Positions 615 through 18,932 of a DNA stretch of 32,000 nucleotides are shown here, piece after piece. The first letter of the stretch is position 1. Every line of letters starts with the position of its first letter. The notes beneath the pieces were generated by a model that was not told the DNA's origin, ran no database searches, and worked only from the letters and a program-made list of their open reading frames with translations. Location of the stretch: the NCBI RefSeq assembly GCF_008000775.2, contig NZ_CP042905.2, positions 2,070,001 through 2,102,000 on the forward strand, given 5' to 3'. This stretch comes from Promethearchaeum syntrophicum (GTDB lineage: Archaea; Asgardarchaeota; Lokiarchaeia; Sigyniarchaeales; Promethearchaeaceae). A program made the translations under genes and the position numbers.

Positions 615-1391
615 ATGCCGAAAGATATACTTGAATTGGTCCGTGATTTTAATTATTTAGTAAAAGATGCAATTTCTGGCCCAAATTGTATTGATCCTAA
701 AGTGTGTCATGGAGATTGCTGCTTTATTCACATAGATATTCCAAGAATTTTAGCTCAACATTACATTGAAAAGGGTTGGGCAAGTAAAGAAGATTTCAAA
801 CGAGGTTCAACTTTTAGCTTTGAAATTAATGTTGATTTAGACATATTAAAGTGTGTGTTCTTTTCCAAAGAGGTAAATGGTTGTTCTCTGCATATAACTG
901 GAATGAAACCTCCACAGTGTTGGGTATATCCTACTGGTTTAGATCCTGATAAAGTAAATACATCATGTAAAAAAGCAGGTGGTTGGTTTATAAATGATTC
1001 TGTGAGTGTTAGGAACGCTAAAAATATTTTAAGTGATTATGTTTCAATGTGTCAAGCAGAAGCTATAGAAGAAAACTCTCCCGATAAGATAAATCGGAGA
1101 TTACAAGCATTATCTACAGAAAAATTTGATACCCTTACGCCAAGTAGTATTGCCGGAATTGAGGATGATTGGGATAGGTTCAAAATTTTGATAGGCGAGG
1201 GTTATAATTTAGGCGTACGATCTTTTTGTTCAAAAATTGATTGTGGGATTGAATATTTCGAGTGCCCTGTTGTGTGTGAACCTCTGAAGAAAAAATTACT
1301 AAAATTTCTTTCTGAGAAATTATCCCATTTTATTCAACAAAACGGGTTTAAATCTCAATATACATTCATGGAATTAAAAGGACAGAACTGA
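615..1391 (+). CDS. Cysteine-rich putative Zn/Fe-binding protein (YkgJ/UPF0153-like CxxCxxCC family)
   Basis: 258-aa ORF. The N-terminal motif C-IDPKV-C-HGD-CC-F resembles the Cx..CxGxCC signature of YkgJ-type metal-chelating domains. More Cys clusters follow (CSLH..PPQCW, CSKIDCGIEYFECPVVC). Confidence 0.5.
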   Translation: MPKDILELVRDFNYLVKDAISGPNCIDPKVCHGDCCFIHIDIPRILAQHYIEKGWASKEDFKRGSTFSFEINVDLDILKCVFFSKEVNGCSLHITGMKPPQCWVYPTGLDPDKVNTSCKKAGGWFINDSVSVRNAKNILSDYVSMCQAEAIEENSPDKINRRLQALSTEKFDTLTPSSIAGIEDDWDRFKILIGEGYNLGVRSFCSKIDCGIEYFECPVVCEPLKKKLLKFLSEKLSHFIQQNGFKSQYTFMELKGQN

Positions 1392-1607
1392 AATTAATTA
1401 TAAATATGCCGATTTTTGTCGGATCCCACATTGAATAAAATCTTAATTATATTCCAGTCGGACCATCACGATGTTATATCGGATTATATATTATCATCAT
1501 TCTTTTTAACATAACCTTAAATAACTACAATCTTAAAGTTTATTAATGGGTAAATAATTTTTGCTCAAAGTCTACTTTTTGACATAGTTAGAAATGGGAT
1601 TAGGGTT

Positions 1608-1976
1608 TTGGACGTGCAAAAAAAAATGGAAAATGAATTAAGCTTAACCGAATTGACTAAAAAATTCTTCAGTCGAAAATATGAATATATTATTCCTGAA
1701 AATCCAATCAAAGGTAGATCAGGTCAAAAATGGAAATTCAATGCGTTCGTGATGTATGAGAATCAGAAGTACGGTGTGTTTATCCGAGAGTGGAATAGGA
1801 GTATAGGGGTTAACCAGATTCGACAATTGGAGAAAGCTTGTAGGGATACAAAATGTGCAGGTGGAATCATAGTTGGAGATACATTTTCGTGTAATGCAGA
1901 GATTTTTGGAGAGAATTTAGGTATTCAAGTAGTGGAAAGGAGCACCCTAGTCCAAAAAATGCAGAATGGAATATAG
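1608..1976 (+). CDS. Small hypothetical protein with possible restriction-endonuclease-like (Mrr_cat-type) fold
   Basis: 122-aa ORF (TTG start in track; ATG at 1626 is the more likely start). The pattern GVFIREWNRSIGVNQIRQLEKA...GGIIVGDTFSCNAEIFGENLGIQVVERSTL resembles the core of Mrr-like nuclease domains, but the catalytic residues are not clearly present. Confidence 0.3.
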   Translation: MDVQKKMENELSLTELTKKFFSRKYEYIIPENPIKGRSGQKWKFNAFVMYENQKYGVFIREWNRSIGVNQIRQLEKACRDTKCAGGIIVGDTFSCNAEIFGENLGIQVVERSTLVQKMQNGI

Positions 1977-2053
1977 AAATTCCATATTGATATTCCAAAT
2001 CCAAATTTCCCATTCAATAACTTTTTCTAATAAAATTTCTTTCTTTTTATGTG

Positions 2054-3607
2054 ATGTCTTTTATTATACGTAAAGAAAAAAAGCAATTTGATGATGATAC
2101 TTTACTAAAGAATTTTGATGAGTGGTCTCAATCTTCAATCGAAAAGCATGATCTCTATAATTTTGAAGTTAAACTTGATTATGGTCTAGAGAAACAATTT
2201 GCCAAGAATATTTATGAATTAACTTCCTACGTATTTATCCCAAATGCATTGCAGATCAATAATTCGACATATACTAAGAGTCAGTTTTTTGCTGATCGGA
2301 ACAATTATTTAAGATTTAGAACTGCTAGAATGAGTTTAACGGGGCTTTTAAATAGTGAAAATGAATTATCTCCATTCAAAATGATTTTAATTAATATGAA
2401 TATGATTAAAAATGGTAATTTTGACCCGGAAATTATAAAAAAAGTTTCATATGAGTTAAGAGTAATGGGCTGTATTGTTAAGTCAAATTTAAGGGATCAA
2501 GTTGAATTTTTTATAACAAACATTGCTAATTTTGAGGAATCACCTGCTGATTATAAAAGTTTTATCTTATATCTTGATGATATTAAGAGTTTACAAATCC
2601 ATATGCAAAATTTAAGGATGGAATTCCAACTAATTCAAATTCCTGAGGAATTAAAAGAAACGTTTTCGTTTGTAGATGAATACATCAGCAACCAAATAGA
2701 AGAATTTATGACTTTATTATTATATAAATCCAATTTTAATGATGAAACAAGAGAGAAATTAGTTAGTTTGATTGAATTTGAACAAAAACACAAGAAACAA
2801 GTAAATAGTAAGATTTTGATTGAGAAAGATTCTGATAATAAAAGCGTTGTATATTGGAAAAGTATTCTGAAAAAATTTGTTCAAGGTGTTTTGTACTTAG
2901 ACCTTAACCAAAAGGATGAGAAATCTAAACCACTAGAATTCCTTTACTCAGTAGCAGCAGGATTAGCAATGTTTTTCTCCGTATTACTTGGGTTTTTTAT
3001 TGTTTCTCAATTTCAAAATCAAGAATGGGCTTATGTTGTTGCATTGGTTATTGTTTATATGTTAAAAGATAGAATTAAAGAAAATATACGTACCTTATTT
3101 CGAGGAATAGTTCAGAAATATTATCCTGATCGCTCTTTTGAAATTTTTGATAATAATAATAAAATGAAGATTGGTTCCTGTAAAGAAATCATGGATTTTA
3201 TAAAATGGGGAGAAATTCCTAATGAAATATTACAAATTAGGGAAGCCAGCCATAAAACTATGATCGAAAGAGAAGGAAAACCAGAAATTGTTCTCAAATA
3301 TTCCAAGATTATTGAACTGAAAACGAAAAATATTAGTGAGAATCATAAAAGGCATTCAAATATTAATGATATCATACGGTTTAATATCATAGATTTTCTT
3401 CAATATGCCGATGATCCCATTACAAATGAAGAATTTTGGGATTCTGAGAAGAAAAAAGTAATAAAAATCTCGAGTGTTAAAGTCTATCATCTCAATATAA
3501 TATTTAAGATGAAAATGCCCAACCAACAGATAAAATACAAGAAGATTCGTGTCATTTTGGATCAAAAGGGAATTAAAGAAGTAAAAGAACTGACCTTCGT
3601 ATTATGA
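2054..3607 (+). CDS. Hypothetical membrane protein (two central TM helices), no recognisable family
   Basis: Long ORF (track start GTG 2051; ATG at 2054). Hydrophobic segments LEFLYSVAAGLAMFFSVLLGFFIVSQF and WAYVVALVIVYMLKD are flanked by large soluble regions. I recognise no catalytic motifs. Confidence 0.6.
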   Translation: MSFIIRKEKKQFDDDTLLKNFDEWSQSSIEKHDLYNFEVKLDYGLEKQFAKNIYELTSYVFIPNALQINNSTYTKSQFFADRNNYLRFRTARMSLTGLLNSENELSPFKMILINMNMIKNGNFDPEIIKKVSYELRVMGCIVKSNLRDQVEFFITNIANFEESPADYKSFILYLDDIKSLQIHMQNLRMEFQLIQIPEELKETFSFVDEYISNQIEEFMTLLLYKSNFNDETREKLVSLIEFEQKHKKQVNSKILIEKDSDNKSVVYWKSILKKFVQGVLYLDLNQKDEKSKPLEFLYSVAAGLAMFFSVLLGFFIVSQFQNQEWAYVVALVIVYMLKDRIKENIRTLFRGIVQKYYPDRSFEIFDNNNKMKIGSCKEIMDFIKWGEIPNEILQIREASHKTMIEREGKPEIVLKYSKIIELKTKNISENHKRHSNINDIIRFNIIDFLQYADDPITNEEFWDSEKKKVIKISSVKVYHLNIIFKMKMPNQQIKYKKIRVILDQKGIKEVKELTFVL

Positions 3608-3843: not shown

Positions 3844-6114
3844 ATGTCTCGTCGCACAAAAATGACTGAAGATATTTTAAAAATGATGGAAAATCCGAAA
3901 CAGATCAGAAATCTTGCTCTAATCGGCCATATAGATCATGGAAAAACAACATTATCTGATTCTCTTTTAGCAGAAGCTGGACTTTTAGCAGAAAGTTTGG
4001 CGGGAGAAGCAAGAGTATTAGATTATCTTGAAGAAGAACAAAGACGAGGCATTACAATAAAATCTGCTAATATTTCATTATATTATGAGCATAGTCTTGA
4101 AAAATCGCTTCCCTTCTTGATAAACTTGATTGACACTCCCGGGCATCTAGATTTCTCTGGGAAAGTTACCCGAGCTCTTCGGATGGCAGATGGTGTCATT
4201 GTTATTGTCGATAGTGTTGAAGAAGTAAGTAGTCAAACAGAAACTGTTGTTCGTCAAGCATTAGATGAAGCTGTCCGGCCAATACTATTTATAAACAAGA
4301 TAGATCGCCTTTTTAAAGAATTAAAACTTGACATGGAAGAAATCAAGGAAAAATTTAGTCGAATCATTCAAGATTTTAACAAATTAATATTCATGTATGG
4401 AGATGAATTGGCTAAATCTAACTGGATGGTTTCAGCTGAATTAGGTTCCGTGATTTTTGGGTCTGCACTTCATAGATGGGGATTTGTAATATCTGATCTT
4501 AAAACAAAAAATCACTCATTACAATATTTTGAAAACAAATACCAAGATGGCACTTATAAAGAAATTTCTTCATTATATCCCGTTTGGAAGAGTGTTCTTG
4601 CAGCTGTTGTTCAATTTGTTCCAGATCCAGCTCAAGCTCAATCTTACAGAACACAAACAATATGGAGTGGGGATATCGAGACTGAAATTGGAAAAGCTAT
4701 TCAAAAATGTGATCCTACTGGACCTTTAGTAATAGGTATGGGGAAAGTTCAAAAAATTAAGAATAGATTAATTGGAACTGGAAGGATATTTTCAGGAACT
4801 TTGAAAAGAGGGCAACATGCATGGCTTGTGAATGATGGATCAAAAACTTCGGTCAATCAATTGAGTATCTTCATGGGTTCTAGAATGGAAACTGTTATAG
4901 AAATTCCAGCAGGTAATATTGCAGCTATAGGTGGCATTAAAAAAATTAGCAGTGGAGAAACAATTTTTGATATTAAAAATATAGATGAAGCTAAACCCTT
5001 TGAGGCTGTAAAATATGTGAGTGAACCTGTTGTAACTGTTGCAGTTGAACCTGATATGTTAAAAAATCTTGCTCAATTACAAGAGATTCTCGAAGATATT
5101 AAAATAGAAGACCCAAATATTAATGTTGAAATTAGCAATGATTCCGGTGAATGTCTGCTATCTGGTATGGGACCATTGCATTTAGAAATCGTTGCAAAAA
5201 CAATAAAAGAAAGAGGTATTGAAGTTTCAGTTTCAAAACCAACAAGCGTATTTCGAGAATCAGTTCAAAAAATTAGTAAATATCACGAAGCAAAAAGCCC
5301 CAATGGATTGAATTCAATACAAATGCTGGTTATGCGTATGGATCCCTCGTCTGTAGAATATTTTAGAGGTGCCAAACGGCATATATTAGAAAATGAATAC
5401 TTACGGATAAACGATTTGAAAGAAAAAACCAATTTTAGTGAATATGAAGCCAAAGGGCTATGGAATGTGGATCGGTTTCAAAATATTATTATTTCTAGAT
5501 TGGAAGAAGATACAGGTATTGTATACAATGAAAATGATGAAATTAGCCCTAAGTCTCTGAAAAAACCAAAATCTCAAAAAGCAAAACCAAGTAGTCAAAG
5601 ACAAATAACTCATGAAATGCGAGATCAAATCATTAAAATCATTGGTAATTTATGCAATAACGGGACAATCGCTAAAGAACCGATGTCAGAATTAAAAATT
5701 ATCATTAAATATGCCCAGATTGTATCCGATCCTGAAGATTCTAATTATTTTGAAATTTCAACGATGATTAATGATGCATTTATCAATTGCATTCGTGAAG
5801 CTCAACCAGTTTTATTAGAACCTATATATCGAATGTTAATAACATCTCCCGAAGAACACATTGGGACAGTGACTTCTCTTATAAATCAATTTCAAGGGAA
5901 AATTAATGAAATCAGCCAGGATGCATTTAAATCATACATTGACGCGAAGATGTCTGTTAGGAAATCAATTTTATTTGCGGATGAAATTCGCGGTCAAACA
6001 TCTGGACGTGTTTTTTGGCAGAATTTATTTGATCGATTTTCACCTGTGCCAGAACATGATTTAGAAGAAATTGTAAAAGATATTAAATTTCGAAAAGGAT
6101 TGGCGTTTTTCTAA
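3844..6114 (+). CDS. Elongation factor 2 (aEF-2/eEF2 family) paralog, divergent translocase-like GTPase lacking the diphthamide histidine
   Basis: G1 GHIDHGKTT, G3 DTPGHLDF and G4 NKIDR are present with EF-2 domain order, and the C-terminal QPVLLEPIY motif is present. MSRRTKMTEDIL (ATG 3844) matches the usual aEF-2 N-terminus better than the GTG at 3829. The domain IV tip reads VSDPEDSNYFEIS where HxDxxHRGxxQ is expected. Confidence 0.85.
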   Translation: MSRRTKMTEDILKMMENPKQIRNLALIGHIDHGKTTLSDSLLAEAGLLAESLAGEARVLDYLEEEQRRGITIKSANISLYYEHSLEKSLPFLINLIDTPGHLDFSGKVTRALRMADGVIVIVDSVEEVSSQTETVVRQALDEAVRPILFINKIDRLFKELKLDMEEIKEKFSRIIQDFNKLIFMYGDELAKSNWMVSAELGSVIFGSALHRWGFVISDLKTKNHSLQYFENKYQDGTYKEISSLYPVWKSVLAAVVQFVPDPAQAQSYRTQTIWSGDIETEIGKAIQKCDPTGPLVIGMGKVQKIKNRLIGTGRIFSGTLKRGQHAWLVNDGSKTSVNQLSIFMGSRMETVIEIPAGNIAAIGGIKKISSGETIFDIKNIDEAKPFEAVKYVSEPVVTVAVEPDMLKNLAQLQEILEDIKIEDPNINVEISNDSGECLLSGMGPLHLEIVAKTIKERGIEVSVSKPTSVFRESVQKISKYHEAKSPNGLNSIQMLVMRMDPSSVEYFRGAKRHILENEYLRINDLKEKTNFSEYEAKGLWNVDRFQNIIISRLEEDTGIVYNENDEISPKSLKKPKSQKAKPSSQRQITHEMRDQIIKIIGNLCNNGTIAKEPMSELKIIIKYAQIVSDPEDSNYFEISTMINDAFINCIREAQPVLLEPIYRMLITSPEEHIGTVTSLINQFQGKINEISQDAFKSYIDAKMSVRKSILFADEIRGQTSGRVFWQNLFDRFSPVPEHDLEEIVKDIKFRKGLAFF

Positions 6115-6178: not shown

Positions 6179-8233
6179 ATGAATATTAGAAATATACTTA
6201 ATAAAAATAGAACTAAGCAATTTTTTTTTCTATTTCTAATTTACATTTTAATTACCTTAGTGTCATTTTCTAATTTTTCATTTAAGCCATCAAGTTCTGA
6301 ATCTATTCACTTGAAAGTTGGAGCTTATGAGAACAGCCCGAAGATTTTTACCAACGAACAAGGTGAGATTGATGGTTTTTTCCCTTCGATTTTAGGTCAT
6401 ATTGCTGATAAAGAGGGATGGGAATTGGAATATATTCATGGAAATTGGAGTGAAAGTTTAGCCCTCCTTAAGGCAAATCAAATAGATATTTTACCTGATG
6501 TTGGTTTTTCATACGATCGTCAAATGGAGTATGATTTTAATAATGAATCTGCGATAACTGGTTGGGGTATTGCTTATACCCATGATGAATCAGATATCTA
6601 TTCTATGCAAGATTTAAAAAATAAAAAGATCGGAGTAATGAAAGATGATATTAACTATATTGGACCCTTGGGAATAAAAATTATATCTGATCAAAATAGA
6701 TTAAATTGTACTTTTGTTGAATATGATAGCCTTGAAGATGTTTTAACTAGTTTAAATCTCAAAATCGTTGATGTGGGCATCGTAAATGAGTTTTTTGGAA
6801 ATTTAAATGCTTATAAATTTGATGTGAAAAAAACTTCAATCGCGTTTAATCCTATCGATTTTAAATTTGCTTTTCCTAAAAATGCAAGTTTAAATTCGTT
6901 CTTGATTGAGAAAATAGATAATTGGTTAAAGACTTCTAAAAGTGACCTTGATTCTATCTATTATCAAGAAGCCGAAATATACTTATCTGATCAAGAAAGT
7001 TCAATTCCTTCATGGATATTCCCTAGCTTTTTAATTTTAATCGGTTTAGCTGCATTTTTAACAATTTCTGCAATGACTTTGAGATATCAAGTAAAAATTA
7101 GAACGAAGAGTTTACATGATTTAAACCAAGAATTAAGTACAGAATCAATCCAGAAGAAAAATCAATTAGCAAATATTGTAGAAAATTCAAACGATGGGAT
7201 TATTAGTGCTGAATTAGATGGAACAATTAGGTCTTGGAATAAAAGTGCAGAAGTTATTTTTGGTTTTTCATCAGAAGAGATTATTGGAAAAAAATTAGAT
7301 CTTATAATTCCGTCAAATCGTTTTAATGAGGTCAAATATATTATTGATAAAATAAAGCAAGGAGAGCCTGTCAATCATTTTGAAACTAAACTTATGAGAA
7401 ACGATGGTAAACTTCTCGATATATCAATAACAGCTTCTCCATTAAAAAACCTAAAAGGTAAAATTAATGGCTTTTCCGCAATTGGACGCGATTTTACAGA
7501 AACAATTGAGAGACAAAAATTATATCAAGACCAAATTCTAAAAGCCTCTAAATTTAAATCAGATTTCATGGCTTCTATGTCACACGAATTAAGAACCCCT
7601 TTGAATAGTATCATCGGCTTTACCGATGTCATTTTAGAAAGAATAAGTGGGGAAATTAATGAGGAACAAGATAAATACCTCACACATGTAAAAACTTCAG
7701 CTATGCTTCTATTAGATTTAATAAACGATATTTTAGATATTACAAAAATTGAATCGGGTAAAATGGAACTGAATATTGAAGAGGTCAATCTAAGTCAGAT
7801 AATTAGTCAAGTTGATACAATGATAAAACCAATATACATGAAAAAAAGCCTAATTTTTGAAGTGCAAGAAATTGATAAAGAGAAAGTTATTCGAGTAGAT
7901 CGGTTGAGGTTTAAGGAAATACTTTTTAATCTACTTAGTAACGCTGTGAAATATACAAAAGAAGGAAAAATTATGATAAAATTTTCAGAGGAAGAAGAGT
8001 TTTGGAAATTTGATGTAATAGATACGGGTATAGGAATCAAAAAAGAAAATTTTGACATCTTGTTCAAAGATTTTAGAAGGATTGCTTCTAAATATGTAGT
8101 GGCAACAGAAGGAACAGGGCTCGGATTATCTTTGTCTAAAAGATTAGTCGAATTCCATGGAGGAACTATTTCTTTTACCAGCACTTTCGGAAAAGGGTCA
8201 AAATTTACATTTACAATTCCAAAACAATTATAA
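6179..8233 (+). CDS. Membrane sensor histidine kinase: extracytoplasmic solute-binding-protein-like domain, TM, PAS, HisKA, HATPase_c
   Basis: N-terminal TM/signal anchor FFFLFLIYILITLVSF. An SBP_bac_3-like region follows (LKVGAYENSPKIF..GEIDGFFPSILGHIA..), then a second TM (WIFPSFLILIGLAAFLTISAM) and a PAS domain. The kinase core has H-box SHELRTPLNSIIGF, N-box LLSNAVKYT, G1 DTGIGI and G2 GTGLGLS. Confidence 0.9.
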   Translation: MNIRNILNKNRTKQFFFLFLIYILITLVSFSNFSFKPSSSESIHLKVGAYENSPKIFTNEQGEIDGFFPSILGHIADKEGWELEYIHGNWSESLALLKANQIDILPDVGFSYDRQMEYDFNNESAITGWGIAYTHDESDIYSMQDLKNKKIGVMKDDINYIGPLGIKIISDQNRLNCTFVEYDSLEDVLTSLNLKIVDVGIVNEFFGNLNAYKFDVKKTSIAFNPIDFKFAFPKNASLNSFLIEKIDNWLKTSKSDLDSIYYQEAEIYLSDQESSIPSWIFPSFLILIGLAAFLTISAMTLRYQVKIRTKSLHDLNQELSTESIQKKNQLANIVENSNDGIISAELDGTIRSWNKSAEVIFGFSSEEIIGKKLDLIIPSNRFNEVKYIIDKIKQGEPVNHFETKLMRNDGKLLDISITASPLKNLKGKINGFSAIGRDFTETIERQKLYQDQILKASKFKSDFMASMSHELRTPLNSIIGFTDVILERISGEINEEQDKYLTHVKTSAMLLLDLINDILDITKIESGKMELNIEEVNLSQIISQVDTMIKPIYMKKSLIFEVQEIDKEKVIRVDRLRFKEILFNLLSNAVKYTKEGKIMIKFSEEEEFWKFDVIDTGIGIKKENFDILFKDFRRIASKYVVATEGTGLGLSLSKRLVEFHGGTISFTSTFGKGSKFTFTIPKQL

Positions 8234-8271: not shown

Positions 8272-8691
8272 TTATTCTAAATATTTTATTACTAATTCCC
8301 TAAATTCTTTAATCTGCAAGGGTTTTGATATATAATCATTAAAACCTGAATTTAAAATTCGTTCTTTATCTCCTTTCATTGCAAATGAAGTTACAGCCAT
8401 AATTGGTGTTTTTTTATATTTTTCCAGCTTTCGAATTTCTTTGCAAATATCAATCCCGCTCATATCAGGTAGCTGAATATCTAAAATAATAACATCAATA
8501 TTGTTACTTGCTATTGATTGAAGCCCTTCTTTTCCGGTAATAGATGTTAATATATTTAAATTAGGAATAGTTCCTAATACTGCTTTAAATAATTCCATGT
8601 TTTTTTCATTGTCTTCCACAATGAATATTTGTTTTTCTTCTGTCATACTTCGTTCCTTCAATTCGAACAAAATTGCCATTATTTCAAACAA
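8272..8691 (-). CDS. Single-domain CheY-like response regulator receiver
   Basis: IFIVEDNEKN...VIILDIQLPDMSG...TPIMAVTSFAMKGD...DYISKPL gives the acidic pocket, phospho-acceptor Asp, and conserved T/S and K. The likely true start is the internal MTEEKQ at 8646. Confidence 0.9.
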   Translation of the reverse strand: MFEIMAILFELKERSMTEEKQIFIVEDNEKNMELFKAVLGTIPNLNILTSITGKEGLQSIASNNIDVIILDIQLPDMSGIDICKEIRKLEKYKKTPIMAVTSFAMKGDKERILNSGFNDYISKPLQIKEFRELVIKYLE

Positions 8692-8973
8692 TAACGAATT
8701 TATAATGTTCTTGATCGTAAAAATATATCTTTAGAATTATATACAATAATGTGAAATCTATTAAATTTTTTGAGAAACTTAAAAAATACTTTTCTATTGT
8801 AATAATTCAATACCACTTATTTATCATTTCAATGAAAAATAAAATTTTAATTAATTTTTTTGAAGTGTTATAAGAAATCGAATAATAATATAAGTAAACG
8901 GAACTATTTTTTAACTTGATTCCTTAAAAAGGATAAGTAAAAGAAAAACGCTAGTTAAAGAAAACGATCGAAA

Positions 8974-9354
8974 ATGAGAACCAAAAAAGTTTACATAGTT
9001 GAAGATAATCCACTAAATATTGAACTTTATTTAGCAATTCTTAACCAAATTGAAAATATAGAAGTTTTTGTAGAAAAACAAGGTGATAAAGGATTAAATC
9101 TTATTAAATTAGGAGATCCTGATTTATGCATATTAGATTACGATATTCCTGTTCTAAATGGAGTTAAAATCTGTAAAGAACTTAGAAAAATCGAAAAATT
9201 TCAAAAAATACCAATTATTGTAATATCTTCATCCCCTATTAAGGGAAATAAAGATGATATATTTCGAGAAGCTGGTTTTGATAAATGGTTCGAAAAACCT
9301 TTGAATGTTAAGGAATTTAAAAATAACATTACAAATTTGTTGTTTCAAAATTGA
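8974..9354 (+). CDS. Single-domain CheY-like receiver (divergent paralog), upstream of and co-directional with a Rag-like GTPase gene
   Basis: VYIVEDNPLN...LCILDYDIPVLNG...IPIIVISSSPIKGN...WFEKPL. This is the receiver fold signature but is clearly more divergent than the three other receivers in the window. Confidence 0.8.
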   Translation: MRTKKVYIVEDNPLNIELYLAILNQIENIEVFVEKQGDKGLNLIKLGDPDLCILDYDIPVLNGVKICKELRKIEKFQKIPIIVISSSPIKGNKDDIFREAGFDKWFEKPLNVKEFKNNITNLLFQN

Positions 9355-9574
9355 AATCCATGAAGAGCATGCAAATTTATAGTATCTATAATCAGAACAT
9401 TTTTAGAAGAGATTTCTTAAAATTTTTAGTTTTTCTACATGAATAATCCAAATGCCTAATAGAACTCTTAGATTACTTTTCAAAACCTCCTAATTTATAT
9501 ATATCAAAATTATTAGGTTACCAAATCGATCATTAGATATATCACCTAAACAAAGTAAAACATTAAGGATAATT

Positions 9575-11077
9575 ATGAGTAAAAAAATTGTTTTTACGGG
9601 ACCACCGAAAGTTGGGAAAACTACTCTTCGAAAAATCTTTTTTGAAGGCGAAAATCCATCAAAACTGTTAGAGTATTCCTTAACACCCACACATGGTCAA
9701 GAATCCATCCTCCTAAATTTAAAAGAGAAGGTGGGTGTTTTTGATTTAGCAGGTCAAGAAAATCAACGGTGGTATGAAACAGAAGCAAAATCAGTATTCT
9801 TTGATACACAAATTATTATTGTGGTGTTAGATAGTTCATCTCCTAAAGAAGAAATCGTGAAATTTACTAAAAAAGTATTAAAATTAAGAGATGAAATAAC
9901 GCCTTCTTCATTTGTTTATTTACTCCTCCATAAAATTGACTTAATCTCAAAAGATAAATTAAAAATAATAAAAGATAAGGTCAACGATGAGTTTCAGGAT
10001 GTGAATTTATTAGAAATCGCTTATACAAGTATTATGAAATATTCATTTTTACCAACTTTTACATTATTTACAGAGATATTAAAGTTAAGCTTAGGAATTA
10101 AAAAAGATGAAAATGAAAAATATAGTCTTAAATTTCTTGAATATGTAGTAAGTATATTAAATATTATCGATCAAAATGTGGTAATCCCAAAAGAAGATAT
10201 AAAGAGAGATTTGAAACTTCCTGATAAAATTTTCAATAATTTTATTGAATATTTAGAGAAAATGGAGTTTTTAGAAGCTTCAAAATTAAATAAAAAACCT
10301 GTGATATCATTAACTAAGGCTGGTAAAAATTATATTAATGAAATAGTAGGAAAATTCTCTATAGAATCCATACAGAATTTCAAAAACAATATAGAAGAAT
10401 CAAAATTTGAGGAAATTCCTTCGTTCTTAGGATTTTTAATTGCGGATAGGAATGGAAGAACCATCTCGGCTACTGAAGTATATGAAGGAGCTTTTGGTTT
10501 ATTTTTAAAGTATAATGATGAGGTAGAAAAAGGAAATGAACTGGATTTAATTCCTATGTTTATCAGTGCATTAGAAAAGTTTGCGGAAGAAATTAATATA
10601 ATGGATTTACCAGGCTTTAAATTAGAAGGTTCAAATCTCAAAATTCATACAATAAAATATGATATTTGCACACTCTGCCTCTTTATGAGAAATGATGTTA
10701 ATTTCAATTCTGTTAAAAAAGAAGTATTTGCCTGGTTTGATAATTTGATGGAAACCTATCAAGATAAATTAAAACAGAGTATTGAAAGTGGAAACATGGT
10801 TTATTCTAGTAGTCTGCATAGTGAAGCTAAGAAATGGTTAGAGCAAATGAACAAAAACTATGACGATTTGCTGATAAATTTAAAAATCTATAATTTTGAA
10901 CATGTAAAGAAACTGTATCAGAAATTAGATGAGCTTTATTTAAAAATTGATTTTAAATATTCAATGATTCTGGAAAAATTAAAAAAGTTGAAAATAAATT
11001 TGATGGAATCTGCAATGGATAATAATTTTCAAAGTTTTAAAGATATCGTAAAGAAAATAAAAGAATTAGATTCTTAA
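9575..11077 (+). CDS. Rag/Gtr1-like small GTPase fused to a putative winged-helix, a roadblock/LC7-like domain and a C-terminal coiled coil
   Basis: G1 GPPKVGKTT, G3 FDLAGQE and G4 variant HKID (the HKxD form typical of Rag/Gtr1). The wHTH-like part is PKEDIKRDLKLPDKIFNNFIEYLEKMEFLEAS..ISLTKAGKNY. The roadblock-like part is FLGFLIADRNGRTISATEV...LIPMFISALEKFAEEI...LEGSNLKIHTIKYDICTLCLFM. The tail is heptad-rich. Confidence 0.75.
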   Translation: MSKKIVFTGPPKVGKTTLRKIFFEGENPSKLLEYSLTPTHGQESILLNLKEKVGVFDLAGQENQRWYETEAKSVFFDTQIIIVVLDSSSPKEEIVKFTKKVLKLRDEITPSSFVYLLLHKIDLISKDKLKIIKDKVNDEFQDVNLLEIAYTSIMKYSFLPTFTLFTEILKLSLGIKKDENEKYSLKFLEYVVSILNIIDQNVVIPKEDIKRDLKLPDKIFNNFIEYLEKMEFLEASKLNKKPVISLTKAGKNYINEIVGKFSIESIQNFKNNIEESKFEEIPSFLGFLIADRNGRTISATEVYEGAFGLFLKYNDEVEKGNELDLIPMFISALEKFAEEINIMDLPGFKLEGSNLKIHTIKYDICTLCLFMRNDVNFNSVKKEVFAWFDNLMETYQDKLKQSIESGNMVYSSSLHSEAKKWLEQMNKNYDDLLINLKIYNFEHVKKLYQKLDELYLKIDFKYSMILEKLKKLKINLMESAMDNNFQSFKDIVKKIKELDS

Positions 11078-11182
11078 TTTTGTTTTACTATGATTCTTAA
11101 TTTATTAAGAAATTCTGATTCGATTTTTTATCAATTTAACTAGCATACAGAAAATTTTCTCCATTCATCTGAAAAACAAAAA

Positions 11183-12319
11183 TTAACGTTTTAAATAAAT
11201 CGACACAATATCTCCATCTTCTAAATTATGGTCTGTTTGTATAAATTTTTGCCCTGGATGTTTGGCAGATTTTCCCCAGACTAATGCATATCGGTAGTTA
11301 ATTAAGAACCTTTTGTGCAGTTTCAAGCAAAGCTTTTTAATATTATCTCCTTTATGAAGAATGATAGGTTCACTCATATCAACCTCTTTTTGAGGGGGTT
11401 TTAGGTAAACACGGATTAATTCCAGCTCTTGAAAAATTTGATGTCGTAATTTATCAATATTTTCTTTATTCAGAGCTGAAATTTTGACCCAATGATTGTG
11501 CCCGATTTTGTTTGTGATTTCTTCATCTTTTATTTTCTTTTTTGCTAAATCTTTTTTGTTTATAACTACAAATTCCTTTGTATAGATTCGATTTCCCATT
11601 ATATGGTCAATCAGCTGATCTGGAGTTACATGAGGTTCAGAAAAATATACACTTGCGTTGCTAAAACCCATTTCATTTAGAATTCCCTTTACTTCTTCCC
11701 GATCCATATCTTGATGTCCATTATATGTAAATCCAATTCCACCACGATTTGTCTTTGTTATCTGAATTCTGGGGGGTTTTTCATTTAAACGCATTCCTGC
11801 ATTAAAAAGTTCTTGTCTTATAGTTGTAAGGTGGGAAAATTCAATGGACCCATCTGGAAGAAAACAAATCAAATTTAAAATCAAATCAGCACTACGAACC
11901 GCACCGAGAATTTCTCTCCCTCTCCCTTTTCCACTTGCTGCTCCAAGAATAATACCAGGTAGATCGATCAGCTGTATTTTTGCTTCTTCTATATCCATCA
12001 TTCCAGGAATCGCTGTTAATGTGGTGAAATCATAAGATGCAACTTTTGAATCTGTATTTCCTCTTGTAAGAAGGTTAAGTAGAGAAGATTTCCCTACTGA
12101 TGGAAATCCAATAAACGCTACTTGGGAATCTCCCGTTTTCTTAACCCCAAATCCAGAACCTCCTCCTTTTTTGGAAGTTGCAATTTTGATGAGGTCATTT
12201 CGGAGCTTTGCAATTTGTGCTTTCGTATAATTTATTGCTTTCTGCGTAGCTTTATTTTTTTGAGTGCGACTAAGCCGTTCTTCAAAATCCCGAATTTTCT
12301 CTTCTATTTTTTCACTAAT
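11183..12319 (-). CDS. drg: DRG-family (developmentally regulated GTP-binding protein, Obg-like) GTPase with C-terminal TGS domain; proposed non-canonical ATT start
   Basis: The track ORF (11183-12001) begins at MMDIEEAKIQLIDLPG, which is the G3 motif. My translation shows the same frame stays open upstream to 12325. That stretch encodes ISEKIEEKIRDFEERLSRTQKNKATQKAINYTKAQIAKLRNDL...VAFIGFPSVGKSSLLNLLT, the DRG N-terminal helix plus the G1 P-loop. The TGS-like C-terminus is IRVYLKPP...GDIVSIYLKR. There is no ATG/GTG/TTG between the in-frame TGA (12326-12328) and 12001. Confidence 0.8.
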   Translation of the reverse strand: MSEKIEEKIRDFEERLSRTQKNKATQKAINYTKAQIAKLRNDLIKIATSKKGGGSGFGVKKTGDSQVAFIGFPSVGKSSLLNLLTRGNTDSKVASYDFTTLTAIPGMMDIEEAKIQLIDLPGIILGAASGKGRGREILGAVRSADLILNLICFLPDGSIEFSHLTTIRQELFNAGMRLNEKPPRIQITKTNRGGIGFTYNGHQDMDREEVKGILNEMGFSNASVYFSEPHVTPDQLIDHIMGNRIYTKEFVVINKKDLAKKKIKDEEITNKIGHNHWVKISALNKENIDKLRHQIFQELELIRVYLKPPQKEVDMSEPIILHKGDNIKKLCLKLHKRFLINYRYALVWGKSAKHPGQKFIQTDHNLEDGDIVSIYLKR

Positions 12320-12325
12320 TTTTTG

Positions 12326-12334
12326 TCACACTCC
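12326..12334 (-). promoter_or_regulatory. Shine-Dalgarno-like element GGAGTGTGA, 6 nt upstream of the proposed ATT start of the DRG gene
   Basis: The minus strand reads GGAGTGTGA-CAAAAA-ATT AGT GAA. The purine-rich element resembles the GGAGGTGA core complementary to the archaeal 16S 3' end. Confidence 0.35.
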
Positions 12335-12534
12335 AAATTTAAAACCAAGAAAGAAAATTGATTAAGAGCAAAAAATTTTTCGAAAAACAAAAATATCGTG
12401 ATAGCAGCAATGAAATTAGTGAATGAAACAAGGGAATATAATTAATTTATCATAAAGGTTACAGAATGAAAAATTAATTCTATGAAAAAAATTCGGTGGA
12501 TTGAATGTTATTTTTAGATTTTTAGAATATGAAT

Positions 12535-12930
12535 TTAAGATGTAATAGATGTTATTTCAATTTCTAATAATCTTTGAATTTTCTTTCTGAACTCGATTAT
12601 ATTTAATGGTTTTGATATATAATCACTAAATCCTGAATCTACTATTCTTTCTTTATCTCCTTTCATCGCAAATGAGGTTACAGCGATAATTGGTGTGCTC
12701 TTAAACTTGTCCATCTTCCGAATTTCTTCACAAATTTCTGTTCCATTAATTCCTGGAAGTTGAATATCTAGAAGAATAATATCCGGATCTTCGGATTTAA
12801 TTAATTCAAGGCCGTCTATTCCATTCTCCTTGGTTAAAATTTCTAGATTCGGGATCATTCCTAAAACGGCTTTGAATAACTCCAAATTTTTTTTATTATC
12901 TTCAACAATAATGATTTTTTTCAAATTCAT
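12535..12930 (-). CDS. Single-domain CheY-like response regulator receiver
   Basis: KIIIVEDNKKN...IILLDIQLPGING...TPIIAVTSFAMKGDKERIVDSGFSDYISKPL. It is a close paralog of the receivers at 8272 and 19696 and is transcribed divergently from the GTPase gene at 13182. Confidence 0.9.
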   Translation of the reverse strand: MNLKKIIIVEDNKKNLELFKAVLGMIPNLEILTKENGIDGLELIKSEDPDIILLDIQLPGINGTEICEEIRKMDKFKSTPIIAVTSFAMKGDKERIVDSGFSDYISKPLNIIEFRKKIQRLLEIEITSITS

Positions 12931-13181
12931 ATACTTCCCTAATAGAATTCTGTTTATTGTACTTGTATTAACATGATTATATTTATCATTAATTTTGGGA
13001 AATTTTCTAAAAAAAACTTATCTAAACATTAGATTTATTCTTGATTTTTTTCTCAATTCTATGATTAAATGTAATGTAAAAAGAAATTAAGGAAAATATG
13101 TTTTTAGCAAGTAATTACTATACATAATTTATATTTCATGTAATTTAATGTAAAAAAAAATAATTAAACGGTAATTAAAAA

Positions 13182-14471
13182 ATGCCCAAAGGAATCGTTC
13201 TAGTTGGATGGGATAATAAAATGGGATCTACAATTGAGGTGAAATTCCCAAAGGATTATCAAATCCAAAATAAAAAAATAACTCAGTATTTGGTAACTCT
13301 ACAAACTTTCGGAAGAAGTTCAAATATTCAAATTCGAGATAATGAGGATATAATTTTAATTTTTGGTTATCCGGTAAGAGAAGGGCCTGCAAATTATGAC
13401 TTTATTATTGTAATTCTGGATAGTTTAGAGGAATCCGAAATTCCAAAAATTCAAAGTAAACTAAATCTTGAAGGAGGAAATATTTTAAAAACTCCCAAAC
13501 CTAAAAGATCAAAATTATTCCTGGATTTTGCAGGAAATTTCATCAAACAGGAACAAAAGAAAATAGTTTTTATGGGATATCCGAATTCAGGGAAAACTAC
13601 AACAAAATTATTCTTTTTTGAGAAGATTCAGAGTGAGAAACTTTTAGAAACTACATTTACGCCCACAAAAGGAATTGAAACGGATCGGTATAGTTTAATT
13701 GATTCGAATATTGCATTATTTGATACTTCTGGCCAAGAAATTGAAAGATGGTTTAACATAGATGAAACTCCTTTAATTGGTTCTGACCTAACAATTTTCT
13801 TTATAACAGCAATGGATTGGAAACGAAACCCAGAGAAGGTAAAAAATGATTTAAATAGACTTATTCAACTCTCTGAAAAACTTGATGAGTCTGATCACGA
13901 TTTAGTTCTATTCTGCCATAAATTTGATGAAATTACTGAGAATATAGAAGAATTTAAAATAAGTCTTATAGATTTCACTCAAACGTTAGATATCTCTGTA
14001 TTTTTCACTTCAATTAAAGATACGGGGAATTTTGATATTTATATTGGTTATCAACTCATGTTGAGAAAATTCTCACCACTATTTGCTTTTATAAATAATT
14101 CACTCAATCCACTTATGAGCAGGTATCAACAAAGCGGAAATCTCCTATTTATTCTCGATTCTGATTTCACTCTAATCACAGATTTTACTCATAGCATTGA
14201 GGATTTTGATGTGGCGAACATCCAACAGTTTAAAAGTACTACAATCAAAATGATGAAAATTATTAATTTAGATGATAATAAATCTAGTGATTTCATTACT
14301 TTTACTTACGAATCAAGTGCTAAAATAGTCGTTTGTTTAAGAATATCTAAATTTAATCCCGATTTTTCTTATGTTATAATGCAAGCTGATTCATATCAAC
14401 TTGTGGATGAAATCTATAAGGAATATAATAAAATGAAAGAGAATTTTACGTGGGTAGAGCATAATAATTAA
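13182..14471 (+). CDS. Three-part small GTPase: N-terminal longin/uDENN-like domain, Rag/Gtr1-like G domain, C-terminal roadblock-like domain
   Basis: The N-terminal ~100 aa (GIVLVGWDNKMGSTIEVKFP...DFIIVILDSLEESEIPKIQ) have an alpha/beta regulatory-domain pattern. The G domain has G1 GYPNSGKTT, G3 FDTSGQE and G4 variant HKFD. The C-terminal part is GNLLFILDSDFTLITDF...KIVVCLRIS. Confidence 0.7.
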   Translation: MPKGIVLVGWDNKMGSTIEVKFPKDYQIQNKKITQYLVTLQTFGRSSNIQIRDNEDIILIFGYPVREGPANYDFIIVILDSLEESEIPKIQSKLNLEGGNILKTPKPKRSKLFLDFAGNFIKQEQKKIVFMGYPNSGKTTTKLFFFEKIQSEKLLETTFTPTKGIETDRYSLIDSNIALFDTSGQEIERWFNIDETPLIGSDLTIFFITAMDWKRNPEKVKNDLNRLIQLSEKLDESDHDLVLFCHKFDEITENIEEFKISLIDFTQTLDISVFFTSIKDTGNFDIYIGYQLMLRKFSPLFAFINNSLNPLMSRYQQSGNLLFILDSDFTLITDFTHSIEDFDVANIQQFKSTTIKMMKIINLDDNKSSDFITFTYESSAKIVVCLRISKFNPDFSYVIMQADSYQLVDEIYKEYNKMKENFTWVEHNN

Positions 14472-14516: not shown

Positions 14517-15668
14517 TTATTCAGTTAAATTTCTTAATTTAAACACTTTTCTCAGTTCTGACATTACATCATTTCTATTCGGTTTAACTTTTTGTTGCAC
14601 TTTTTTCTTTGGTGGGGGAGGAGGAGGTTGAACTATTTGTTTATTTGATGATTTCACTTCAATATTTTTTGTACTTGGAATTTTTCCTAGATTCGATCCT
14701 CCAATTATACCTTTTAATTCTTGAAATTGATTCATTATTGAACTATTTAACTTAATTACCATTTCTGAAAGAATTGAAACTTGTTCTTCTAAATTTTTTG
14801 CAATTTTATCTGGACCGAAAAATTGCTTAAAGGATTTTGCAAATTCGGGCTCATTTGCATAGAAATTATAAATACTCGATTGAATTAATTCAAAACTAAA
14901 TTTCTTCTCATTAAGCGATGTTGAGATTATTTCAGAGATCATTTCTAAATTAATTTGAAAATCTACTTCTTGACGTATATCAGGATCTGATTTATGTAAG
15001 AGTACTAATACATATGGATTTTCTTTGAAATAACTCACTATATCTAGAATTTTATCAAAATATTCTATTGATTCATCAAAACGTTCCGAATCTTGGATAT
15101 CTATAACATAGATAATTAAATCGATATGTAAGAAAAATTCTTCTGGATTTTTTAAATAATCCTGCCTGTGGAATTCTTGTCCACCGAAATCCCATATCGT
15201 TAAATTAAAATTTTCAACTTCAATTTTTTGAATGTCCACTCCTTTTGTAGGAGGAAGATTAGTTATATCGCCAAATTTTGTTTTTCCTTTTAAGCTTTCA
15301 AGCATGGATGTTTTTCCTGCGTTATTAAGACCCAAAACTATTATTTTTTGCTTGGATTTTTTTAAATAAAGTGATCTTTTTTTCCATGCTCTTGATAATA
15401 ATTCAGCTGTTAAAATCCATTTTTCGAATAGTTCTTCACTAATACTAGTTTCTTTTGCAATTTTTTTAATTTTTTCAGATTTTAATTTTACAAAATCTCT
15501 AATTTGGGTGATTTTGTATTTTTTAAGTTTCTCTCCATATTCATTCTTGCATTCTTTTAAAACGCTTGGATTCATATTCAAAATTTCTGAAAAAGAATTT
15601 GGTGTTTTTTCAACAACAAGAAATTTCTTACAAAAAATATCGATTATTTTTTCTTTATCTGTTGACAT
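14517..15668 (-). CDS. Arf/Rag-like small GTPase with N-terminal extension, C-terminal coiled coil, poly-proline tract and WH2-like tail
   Basis: G1 GLNNAGKTS (Arf-like GLDxAGKT), G3 WDFGGQE and G4 variant HKSD. The C-terminus is ...QPPPPPPKKKVQQKVKPNRNDVMSELRKVFKLRNLTE. Confidence 0.8.
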   Translation of the reverse strand: MSTDKEKIIDIFCKKFLVVEKTPNSFSEILNMNPSVLKECKNEYGEKLKKYKITQIRDFVKLKSEKIKKIAKETSISEELFEKWILTAELLSRAWKKRSLYLKKSKQKIIVLGLNNAGKTSMLESLKGKTKFGDITNLPPTKGVDIQKIEVENFNLTIWDFGGQEFHRQDYLKNPEEFFLHIDLIIYVIDIQDSERFDESIEYFDKILDIVSYFKENPYVLVLLHKSDPDIRQEVDFQINLEMISEIISTSLNEKKFSFELIQSSIYNFYANEPEFAKSFKQFFGPDKIAKNLEEQVSILSEMVIKLNSSIMNQFQELKGIIGGSNLGKIPSTKNIEVKSSNKQIVQPPPPPPKKKVQQKVKPNRNDVMSELRKVFKLRNLTE

Positions 15669-18700: not shown

Positions 18701-18932
18701 AATAATCTACTTCTTTTTCACCATTTATCACCTTATTAAAAACTCTCTCCATTTCTTCCCTTTTAGAATGAGGAATACAAGTTTTGAACCAATTTTTACC
18801 CAATATTTCATTTTCTCTATATCCAAGTATTTTGTTACCCTTTACGTTAATATAAAGTATTTTCCCTTTTCTATCTAATTGTAGAACTATCGCATCAATA
18901 ATGTTCAAATATTTTCTATCGTTTCCAATCAT
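15747..18932 (-). CDS. Cytoplasmic multi-sensor histidine kinase (PAS-GAF-PAS-PAS-uncharacterised module-PAS-HisKA-HATPase_c)
   Basis: 1061 aa with no TM segments. It has PAS-like blocks, a GAF-like block (FCWIGLVQYDE...IGVLGIYSG), H-box SHELRTPLNSIIGF, N-box LLSNAIKYT, DTGIGI and GTGLGLM. Confidence 0.9.
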   Translation of the reverse strand: MIGNDRKYLNIIDAIVLQLDRKGKILYINVKGNKILGYRENEILGKNWFKTCIPHSKREEMERVFNKVINGEKEVDYFENAVQTKKGLEKIIRWHNSNVYNKKGNIEGVLSLGTDITRQRKIEKLTFIQGQTNFLISNAKNEMGMFQEFCEEIIQFKNYQFCWIGLVQYDEEKSIKPVALAGYNIFDNSKYDGKKLKFTWSESVKDQSPSGTAIRTRKNYIINDLSAEKKFKNWKTVFDGSGFLSSISIPIIIENIVIGVLGIYSGNKNTFDEDDVELISKMVNNLSLGIAKMRYYKIQKKNEKNLRNSLKKFTTIFQAIPDLFLLLSKKGDVLEFHGDKNLLHVPLDNLLGKDLFIGFPNKISKLIEEKSLEVFKTKKPQVVEFPLKQQNEIIEIFEARLFFYDENKIAVFVRNITESKSRENKLKETEFRLRNLNLDLDQKVELRTRELENSKNQLNIILNTLNYPVFVISEDYEILFHNRSSSKIYDGILDGKICYKILRGREQPCDDMCPLRNKSLSQNIKSLKFEDKLFLSKFDEERDFEISSTKIENFNGKPALLEIFEDITDRKKKEKQILESELMLQVRIKGLKCLYGISSLLVVPDITIKELLYGVLPLIRSSWQYPEITMVKIIYGENQAQTTSFKESEWKLTISDKINDIPLKIEVVYEINKEFLDEEKRLLKEILTRIKLGIISIEYKLETKRLASIVGTSSDSIVSMDKEGMIKSWNKGAERIYGYALEEVLEKSISMLIPPDRMEEIPNLIEKVVQGESYKLFETKRLRKDGKVLSVNVTISPILDLKGDIVGISSISRDVTESLEQQKQYQDQLIKSSQFKSDFMASMSHELRTPLNSIIGFTDILIEKFYGDVNEKQDHYLNNVRTSAEHLLNLINDILDISKIEAGKVELKYRDFDLLNLVSQIEIEVKPLYKKKGLNFELVGFEKGTIINADPIRFKEILLNLLSNAIKYTEKGGIKLDFMEDEKNWKFKIIDTGIGIAPEDFGIIFQEFKRVESDYVESIEGTGLGLMLTKKLIELHGGHITFTSVLGEGSSFSFTLPKKLI

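Follow-up and report, generated by a model that had tools for sequence, protein, structure and literature searches.

In eukaryotes, copies of EF-2 have been turned to jobs other than translocation. EFL1/Ria1 belongs to the eukaryotic EF-2 radiation, is about 1,100 amino acids long with a large insertion, and works with SBDS; Snu114 is spliceosomal, with about 970 amino acids and an acidic N-terminal extension. In bacteria, the ribosomal protection proteins Tet(M)/Tet(O) and EF-G2 are EF-G paralogs in which the tip of domain IV has been remodelled. The closest described system is archaeal. Narrowe et al. (2018, PMC6143161) reported that Asgard archaea lacking dph genes carry an aEF-2 with the substitution R702T together with a paralog, aEF-2p, which is without both decoding-centre loops and is also found in Kor 1/3 Korarchaeota and some Bathyarchaeota. 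The class was restated by Eme et al. (2023, PMC10307638), and the literature that we searched contains no experiment with an aEF-2p.

Here we describe an EF-2-family gene in a 32,000-nucleotide stretch (the window) of the genome of the Lokiarchaeial Promethearchaeum syntrophicum (NZ_CP042905.2, positions 2,070,001 to 2,102,000). The gene very probably encodes an aEF-2p, standing beside an R702T-type aEF-2 in a dph-lacking Asgard archaeon, and its product is presumed to be a ribosome-dependent GTPase and not a translocase.

Results

The aEF-2p gene lies on the forward (+) strand, as do all features given below, and occupies positions 3844–6114 as one uninterrupted frame of 756 amino acids plus stop, encoding a five-domain EF-2-family GTPase. 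The start codon, ATG 3844, is common to the orthologs, every one of which opens with MSRR-KMTEDI; the list of open reading frames also holds an alternative start, GTG 3829, upstream of it. Pfam matches were obtained for GTP_EFTU (residues 19–260), GTP_EFTU_D2 (311–374), EFG_III (392–464) and EFG_C (656–742), and the Pfam search returned no match to EFG_IV in this protein. An AF2 model (pLDDT 88.7, pTM 0.82) had as its best Foldseek match the aEF-2 of M. nitroreducens, 6u43 (TM 0.88/0.92). The protein has the domain order and fold of canonical aEF-2 (TIGR00490; 8hl1, 5h7j, 6u43), is 42–49% identical to it in the G domain, and keeps the C-terminal RKGL tail. It differs in scoring below the family cut-off (604 bits against 738 for TIGR00490), in a domain IV that is only about 19% identical, and in lacking the diphthamide His, the Arg-Gly that follows it and the Lys-His of the second loop.

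The GTPase motifs are all intact, in agreement with the original prediction that they are canonical for EF-2. G1/P-loop GHIDHGKT (residues 28–35, 3925–3948) shows almost no variation in alignments A1 and A2. G3/switch II DTPGH (residues 97–101, 4132–4146), with the catalytic His101, is invariant in both, as are N151, K152 and D154 of G4 NKID (residues 151–154, 4294–4305). G206, S207 and A208 of G5 GSAL (residues 206–209, 4459–4470) are invariant in A1, and G2/switch I RGITI (residues 68–72, 4045–4059) was read from the translation and alignment.

The tip of domain IV is where the protein departs from the canonical pattern, with the loop V-S-D-P-E-D-S-N-Y-F (5722–5751) in place of H-x-D-x-x-H-R-G-x-x. 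In the phmmer alignment with aEF-2 8hl1 (E 4e-161), V-V-H-E-D-P-A-H-R-G-P-A-Q pairs without gaps with Q-I-V-S-D-P-E-D-S-N-Y-F-E, so that the modified His stands opposite Asp632, the Arg opposite Ser and the Gly opposite Asn. Two MAFFT alignments give the identical register at the tip, and the codons from 5722 onwards are gta tcc gat cct gaa gat tct aat, with GAT 5737–5739 encoding Asp632. The predicted change of the diphthamide His to Asp is thus upheld by all three, and the predicted replacement of the HRGxxQ tip by DSNYFE by the gap-free pairing with H-R-G-P-A-Q. In the AF2 model, the loop lies between a strand (residues 617–625) and a helix (635–653). Alignment revealed no conserved His at the tip position in any of the Lokiarchaeial family members (0 of 22), and congeneric orthologs that are 91% identical have the identical tip, indicating that the loss of the His is due neither to chance nor to sequencing error. 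The motif N-[YF]-F-E that follows is kept in 19–21 of these 22 proteins, and the tip is acidic, with a mean net charge of −1.9 compared to about 0 in canonical proteins. Beyond Lokiarchaeia, the aligned tips of the wider aEF-2p clade vary and are not conserved.

A second decoding-centre loop, SPNGLN (residues 485–490, 5296–5313), stands where canonical proteins have SPNKHN or SPHKHN, and the tRNA-contacting Lys and stacking His described for this loop (PMC6143161) are therefore gone. Both domain IV loops that reach the decoding centre have been rewritten, leaving a His-less, acidic tip, while the GTPase core and domains II, III and V are kept.

Domain IV also contains a lineage-specific insertion of residues about 553–590 (5500–5613), a segment that has 9 residues in canonical proteins, as seen in the alignments and the model. 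It is bipolar, acidic in its first half and rich in Lys and Ser in its second, and the K-rich core, SPKSLKKPKSQKAKPSSQRQ, spans residues 568–587 (5545–5604), about 45 residues ahead of the tip. The Lys-rich insertion that had been predicted thus exists; it had been placed before domain IV, and lies instead within it as a variable loop. The segment is 30–56 amino acids long in most proteins of one family (f1) and short or absent elsewhere, its model pLDDT is 60–69, and its dN/dS is 0.09–0.19. The insert is a labile, low-confidence loop confined to part of one family.

The genome, a single contig of 4.32 Mb, contains a second EF-2 gene at 3,077,739–3,079,904, 1 Mb from the window gene. Its product has the tip H-T-D-P-A-H-T-G and the second loop SPNGHN, retaining the tip His (His610 of this protein, at the place of His701) and carrying Thr for Arg702. 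Past the tip, both Lokiarchaeial paralogs have in common a Tyr after position 703 and a Thr-Met, which may stem either from shared ancestry or from co-adaptation. This copy rules out the window gene as the sole EF-2 of the genome, the finding that would have told against the original prediction of a specialised paralog distinct from the housekeeping EF-2, and that prediction gains support from it. Searches for dph1/2, dph5 and dph6, which matched four archaeal control genomes, gave no match in this genome (estimated completeness 92.65%), which fits an aEF-2p. Within the order, none of 31 genomes gave a dph2 match, and 24 of the 31 have two EF-2-family genes. Nine relatives in which both copies were read each have one His-less copy and one with H..HT[GQ].

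The domains of the two copies have diverged unequally. Compared with canonical aEF-2, the window protein is 44.5% identical in the G domain (H-T copy 39%), 43% in domain III (H-T copy 32%) and 19% in domain IV (H-T copy 28.5%), and so is the closer of the two in the first two domains and the more distant in domain IV. It is conceivable that the paralog is still a translocase, serving as an alternative elongation factor under particular conditions, given that its GTPase motifs and five domains are all intact and that beyond domain IV it is as close or closer to canonical aEF-2 than the H-T copy. However, both decoding-centre loops are gone, including the tRNA-contacting Lys and His, Pfam EFG_IV found no match, and at 604 bits the protein falls short of the 738 required by TIGR00490. 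We consider such a role quite improbable.

In our tree, the window protein fell within a His-less clade of 27 rows (SH-aLRT 89), with inner Lokiarchaeial nodes at 97–100; the H-T clade and a eukaryote-like clade, each with 100, stand apart from this clade. The tree is a quick LG+G4 search in which deep nodes are weak, 12 rows deviate in amino-acid composition and named EFL1 sequences are absent. Support for the wide His-less clade is moderate at this value of 89.

To quantify selection, we compared synonymous and nonsynonymous divergence, which gave a dN/dS of 0.06 for the whole gene, 0.08–0.16 for the tip and 0.01 for domain V, at a dS of 0.74–0.79. Domain V with the C-terminal tail (residues 656–756, 5809–6111; Pfam EFG_C), which ends in IKFRKGLAFF, is the most constrained region of the protein. 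The gene is intact and under strong purifying selection. A decaying duplicate or functionless pseudogene might have been suspected from the strongly diverged domain IV and its low-complexity insert, but the low dN/dS at this level of dS, a frame that is open here and in orthologs across the order, and the conservation of the new tip motif contradict that reading and make it extremely unlikely.

Examination of the gene neighborhood gave no functional clue, as the 30 loci of aEF-2p or EF-2 that we compared, drawn from 15 Asgard families, showed no neighbor family that was conserved across families. The block of histidine kinase, response regulator and Rag/Arf GTPase genes is shared by this genome with two congeneric ones only, and a functional link to these signalling genes was rejected. 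The placement beside signalling GTPases, originally thought notable, is kept within the genus alone, in genomes that abound in such genes. In families f1 and f9/f24, small GTPases do recur close to the gene, and we take this as chance because these genomes encode very many of them. The protein encoded upstream (518 amino acids) is a membrane protein that Pfam did not match; its synteny is limited to five genomes of family f1, and it was rejected as a partner for this reason and for having no link to translation. An adjacent SBDS homolog, which had been suggested as a check, was not found: SBDS is about 2 Mb from the window gene, and aIF6 is 16 kb from the other EF-2 copy, ruling out adjacency of either to the gene.

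Discussion

All of the features that define aEF-2p were checked and all are present. The protein has the five-domain EF-2 fold with G1–G5 kept; HxDxxHRG is changed to V-S-D-P-E-D-S-N, and SPHKHN (Lys584, His585) to SPNGLN; the same genome has an aEF-2 with His701 kept and Arg702 changed to Thr; no dph1/2, dph5 or dph6 was found; and the protein falls within the His-less clade. It differs from the published description in two respects: the tip is conserved within Lokiarchaeia (N-[YF]-F-E), whereas Narrowe et al. (PMC6143161) stress its non-conservation, and part of one family carries the 30–56-residue insert, acidic and then Lys-rich, in domain IV. The original prediction stated that divergent EF-2 paralogs and loss of diphthamide had been discussed for some Asgard lineages; that statement was accurate, and since the proteins in question are the aEF-2p described in 2018 (PMC6143161), the observation is correct and not new.

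Resemblance to the eukaryotic paralogs does not extend to descent. Like EFL1/Ria1 and Snu114, which are precedents for a non-translocation job of an EF-2 copy, the window protein is an EF-2 paralog that keeps the GTPase and has no diphthamide-type translocase tip. In phmmer comparisons, it scored E 3e-63 against EFL1 (5anb) and 3e-57 against Snu114 (3jcr), compared to 4e-161 against aEF-2. At 756 amino acids it lacks the large EFL1 insertion, its sole insert being in domain IV, and it has no N-terminal domain of the Snu114 type, since G1 begins at residue 28. Size, insertions, scores and tree position rule out orthology to either protein; the suggested kinship gives way to a place in an archaeal His-less clade and an independent origin. 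Tet(M)/Tet(O) and EF-G2 are likewise ribosome-dependent GTPases with non-canonical domain IV loops, on an EF-G scaffold, but they belong to a different domain of life, and the window protein shows no specific similarity to the Tet(M) type (164 bits against the NCBIfam tet_protect cut-off of 775).

EF-2 docks on the ribosomal GTPase centre through its domains II, III and V. From the sequence, we infer that aEF-2p would bind the ribosomal factor site and hydrolyze GTP there and would not drive tRNA-mRNA translocation, which would fall to the second EF-2 with the tip H-T-D-P-A-H-T-G. The paralog probably bears a split-off EF-2 side function that needs no decoding-centre contacts, with the large subunit or idle ribosomes as its most plausible site of action.

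What that function may be can be postulated in two ways. Narrowe et al. (PMC6143161) proposed, from the co-occurrence of dph loss, R702T aEF-2 and aEF-2p, that the paralog compensates for missing diphthamide. It could then act on the translating 70S ribosome as a fidelity, back-translocation or regulatory factor. The same three traits co-occur here and across the order, a full-length domain IV is kept, and Lokiarchaeia conserve the new tip motif. However, an acidic tip (−1.9 vs about 0) fits oddly beside the tRNA-mRNA backbone, the paralog is absent from some dph-lacking lineages, and the tip varies across the wider clade. We therefore regard compensation as unlikely, if worth entertaining.

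An EFL1-like role for aEF-2p, reached by convergent subfunctionalization, is possible and in our judgement about equally tentative: the paralog would eject the anti-association factor aIF6 from the 50S subunit, freeing the other copy for translocation. In eukaryotes, this kind of release job was given to an EF-2 paralog without diphthamide. In Sulfolobus solfataricus, the ribosome-dependent GTPase of the single-copy aEF-2 releases aIF6 from 50S (PMC8024482). The constraint on the G domain, domain III and domain V, together with the rewritten decoding tip, fits a large-subunit role, and the genome encodes both aIF6 and SBDS. On the other hand, the gene adjoins neither of them, with aIF6 close to the other EF-2 copy; the protein has no kinship with EFL1 by descent; SBDS inhibits release instead of assisting it in the archaeal in vitro system (PMC8024482); and an aIF6 role leaves unexplained why the paralog tracks the loss of dph genes (PMC6143161).

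A broader conjecture, which we hold to be doubtful and somewhat less probable than either of these, is that archaea reinvented EFL1 independently in the form of aEF-2p, which would be a GTPase dedicated to the large subunit, ejecting aIF6 or licensing 50S in some other way. If so, the emergence of aEF-2p would have relaxed the constraint that keeps diphthamide on the translocase copy, and the acidic N-[YF]-F-E tip of Lokiarchaeia, together with the Lys-rich loop, would be a new working surface.

With the class on record since 2018 and taken up again in 2023, the window gene is one more member of it, from a closed Lokiarchaeial genome. To the published description we add a measured dN/dS of 0.06, a domain-wise account of divergence in which the G domain and domain III are nearer to canonical aEF-2 than those of the presumed translocase copy and domain IV is far more distant, a clade-specific conserved tip motif, and the observation that the Lys-rich insert and signalling-gene neighborhood are not general features. 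The aEF-2p class breaks two textbook rules, that each archaeon has one EF-2 and that diphthamide is universal, and it provides a prokaryotic parallel to the eukaryotic split of EF-2 into eEF2, EFL1 and Snu114. With Lokiarchaeia now in culture, the function of aEF-2p is open to test.

An EF-2 scaffold with a replaced decoding tip

The gene at 3844-6114 (+) is one open frame of 756 aa, and the ATG at 3844 was taken as its start because the orthologs in two congeneric genomes begin with the same N-terminus, MSRR-KMTEDI. Pfam matches covered the EF-Tu-type GTP-binding domain, domain 2, EFG_III and EFG_C, with no match to EFG_IV, and the best NCBIfam family was TIGR00490 (aEF-2 equivalog; 604 bits vs a cut-off of 738), the match being broken into two parts with domain IV between them. 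The top phmmer match among solved structures was the crenarchaeote aEF-2 8hl1 (E 4e-161), whose tip V-V-H-E-D-P-A-H-R-G-P-A-Q pairs gap-free with Q-I-V-S-D-P-E-D-S-N-Y-F-E. Because this alignment has no gaps, the first His, the modified His, the Arg and the Gly of the canonical tip can be assigned to Val627, Asp632, Ser633 and Asn634. Positions 5722-5745 carry the codons gta tcc gat cct gaa gat tct aat, so the original prediction had placed an Asp codon (GAT, 5737-5739) at the diphthamide position exactly. Its core observation, an EF-2 paralog with an intact GTPase and a destroyed diphthamide site, is confirmed by Asp632 and by the presence of all five G motifs, which are invariant or nearly so in family alignments. 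The second decoding loop is SPNGLN, replacing SPNKHN.

Asn634, Tyr or Phe at 635, Phe636 and Glu637 are each conserved in 19-21 of 22 lokiarchaeial proteins, and the rewritten tip is non-random within Lokiarchaeia; across the wider His-less clade it is variable. The eight-residue tip is acidic, with a mean net charge of -1.9 vs about 0 in canonical proteins. Nei-Gojobori comparison of the whole gene with the two congeneric orthologs gave a dN/dS of 0.06 (dS 0.74-0.79); domain V stood at 0.01, domain IV at 0.09-0.10, the surroundings of the tip at 0.08-0.16 and an insert at 0.09-0.19. The AlphaFold model (74-row alignment; pLDDT 88.7, pTM 0.82) shows the tip as a loop connecting strand 617-625 to helix 635-653, and its best Foldseek matches were full-length aEF-2 structures (TM 0.88-0.92 to 6u43). 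Our results show an EF-2 scaffold that is intact and constrained, with its decoding tip replaced.

The Lys-rich stretch, which had been thought to precede domain IV, instead sits inside it (residues 568-587; 5545-5604). It belongs to an insert of 30-56 residues where canonical EF-2 has a 9-residue loop, the first half acidic and the second Lys/Ser-rich. The insert is the only part of the model to drop to pLDDT 60-69, and is probably disordered. It occurs in most proteins of the organism's own GTDB family, but several close relatives, like all other EF-2 proteins, have a short version or none; it is a labile, lineage-specific feature and no defining trait of the class.

A second EF-2, with no dph genes found

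A TIGR00490 search of the whole genome (a single contig of 4,324,194 bases) revealed that this is not its sole EF-2 gene. A second, full-length EF-2 of 750 aa lies at 3,077,739-3,079,904 (-) and shares 31% identity with the window protein; with the tip H-T-D-P-A-H-T-G and second loop SPNGHN, it retains the His, has Thr for Arg, and has lost the loop-2 Lys. The suggestion that the window gene encodes a specialised paralog rather than the housekeeping factor was thus right in substance, since the second EF-2 keeps the tip His. Identity to eight canonical aEF-2 proteins was higher for the window protein than for the second EF-2 in the G domain (44.5 vs 39%) and domain III (43 vs 32%), equal in domain V (about 30% for both), and much lower in domain IV (19 vs 28.5%). 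This drop in domain IV indicates that divergence is focused on the region extending to the decoding centre of the small subunit. Residues following the tip (window 5746-5775; about 613-622 in the second EF-2) are common to both lokiarchaeial paralogs and absent from canonical EF-2, namely a Tyr after position 703 and E-I-[AS]-T-M-I vs canonical A-Q-I-x-P-A, for which common descent of the pair, gene conversion and co-adaptation are possible explanations.

Searches for Dph1/2 (PF01866), Dph5 (TIGR00522) and Dph6 (PF01902) found none in this genome, while the same profiles matched all four archaeal control genomes; across 31 genomes of the order, PF01866 likewise gave no match.

Relatives and phylogeny

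With the C-terminal half of the protein as query, a word-indexed search retrieved about 22 close relatives from Lokiarchaeum ossiferum and Promethearchaeota/Lokiarchaeota MAGs, annotated as "elongation factor 2" or "GTP-binding protein". An exhaustive search of representatives added many more His-less EF-2 proteins (650-745 aa), which ranked above canonical ones. Two EF-2-family genes occur in 24 of the 31 genomes of the order, and two copies are also the majority state among 121 genomes sampled from the phylum. Both copies were read in nine relatives, and in these one is His-less and the other carries H..HT[GQ]; HRG is present in both single-copy families whose locus was fetched (n = 2).

A 75-row tree (IQ-TREE quick search under LG+G4, with four bacterial EF-G as outgroup) contained an H-T clade on a long stem (SH-aLRT 100), which holds this genome's second EF-2; a eukaryote-like clade (100); and a 27-row His-less clade that includes the window protein (89; inner lokiarchaeial nodes 97-100). 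The tree supports membership of the window protein in the His-less paralog clade; it does not back an order of events, because deep nodes are weak, 12 of the 75 rows deviate in composition and LG+G4 is not a mixture model. The proposed kinship with EFL1 or Snu114 was wrong, as the eukaryote-like clade is separate. In a genome of another Asgard family (L066, G032:C29), two EF-2-family genes are divergent direct neighbors at 8473-11187 (-) and 11743-13977 (+), one an H-T aEF-2 (H-E-D-P-A-H-T-G) and the other a second family member with a long open frame. Matches to the His-less paralog in some relatives contain an in-frame stop (one TAG each in G017:C272 and G104:C539, one TGA in G071:C1); the window copy is uninterrupted.

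Gene neighborhood

Three genes on the same strand lie upstream (615-3607), encoding a 258-aa Cys-rich protein and a 518-aa membrane protein, both with no Pfam match, and a 122-aa Mrr_cat-like protein. The 518-aa gene accompanies the paralog in five further genomes of this organism's GTDB family (G001, G007, G011, G012, G013), the other two in only three or four of these, and none of the three was found outside that family. Downstream is a 20-kb signaling island (6179-26754) with three PAS histidine kinases (6179-8233, 15747-18932, 23833-26754), at least three single-domain response regulators (8974-9354, 12535-12930, 19696-20091), three Rag/Arf-like GTPases (9575-11077, 13182-14471, 14517-15668), a DRG-like GTPase with a TGS domain (11183-12001) and a VWA protein (22316-23470). 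The significance attached to this signaling-GTPase neighborhood did not hold up: only the two congeners share the kinase, the response regulators and the Rag/Arf-type GTPases with this genome, and ORF clustering of 30 loci from 15 Asgard families yielded no neighbor family accompanying the paralog across families. SBDS, suggested as a possible adjacent gene, lies at 21 kb on the genome, and aIF6 (3095755-3096342) is about 16 kb from the second EF-2; neither is near the window gene.

A PAS histidine kinase also lies directly downstream on the same strand in three genomes of one genus in another family (L044, L045, L046), as at 6179-8233 here. Kinase-core identity is 30-33%, with the third at 43% over a short stretch, and since identity is low and such kinases are abundant, the likeness is probably coincidence. 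In four other Asgard families (f6, f7, f14, f17; loci L063, L066, L067, L071, L072, L077), orc1/cdc6 lies about 0.1-8 kb from the paralog, perhaps an ancient synteny close to a replication origin.

Identity and possible role

The window gene is a member of an already known class, aEF-2p, in the situation described by Narrowe et al. 2018 (PMC6143161). In that study, dph genes were absent from nearly all Asgard archaea; the bona fide aEF-2 had universal R702T and had lost K584 while keeping H701; and aEF-2p retained G1-G5, with both domain IV loops lost and H701 among the residues gone. The authors judged it unlikely to be a translocase and discussed Tet-like, back-translocation and regulatory roles. 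Eme et al. 2023 (PMC10307638) restate the pattern, with dph genes and a single canonical EF-2 kept only in Hodarchaeales. Our literature search found no report of an experiment on aEF-2p.

An EFL1-like, 50S-directed role, such as release of aIF6, has precedents by analogy in Sulfolobus aEF-2, which releases aIF6 (PMC8024482), and in aEF-2 on 50S dimers of M. acetivorans (chain 9ou7_DC; PMC12605026), and we regard it as rather unlikely. A 70S-directed role compensating for the loss of diphthamide seems to us similarly improbable, and both are compatible with the data. More generally, we infer that aEF-2p binds the ribosomal factor site and hydrolyzes GTP there, in a role other than that of a translocase.
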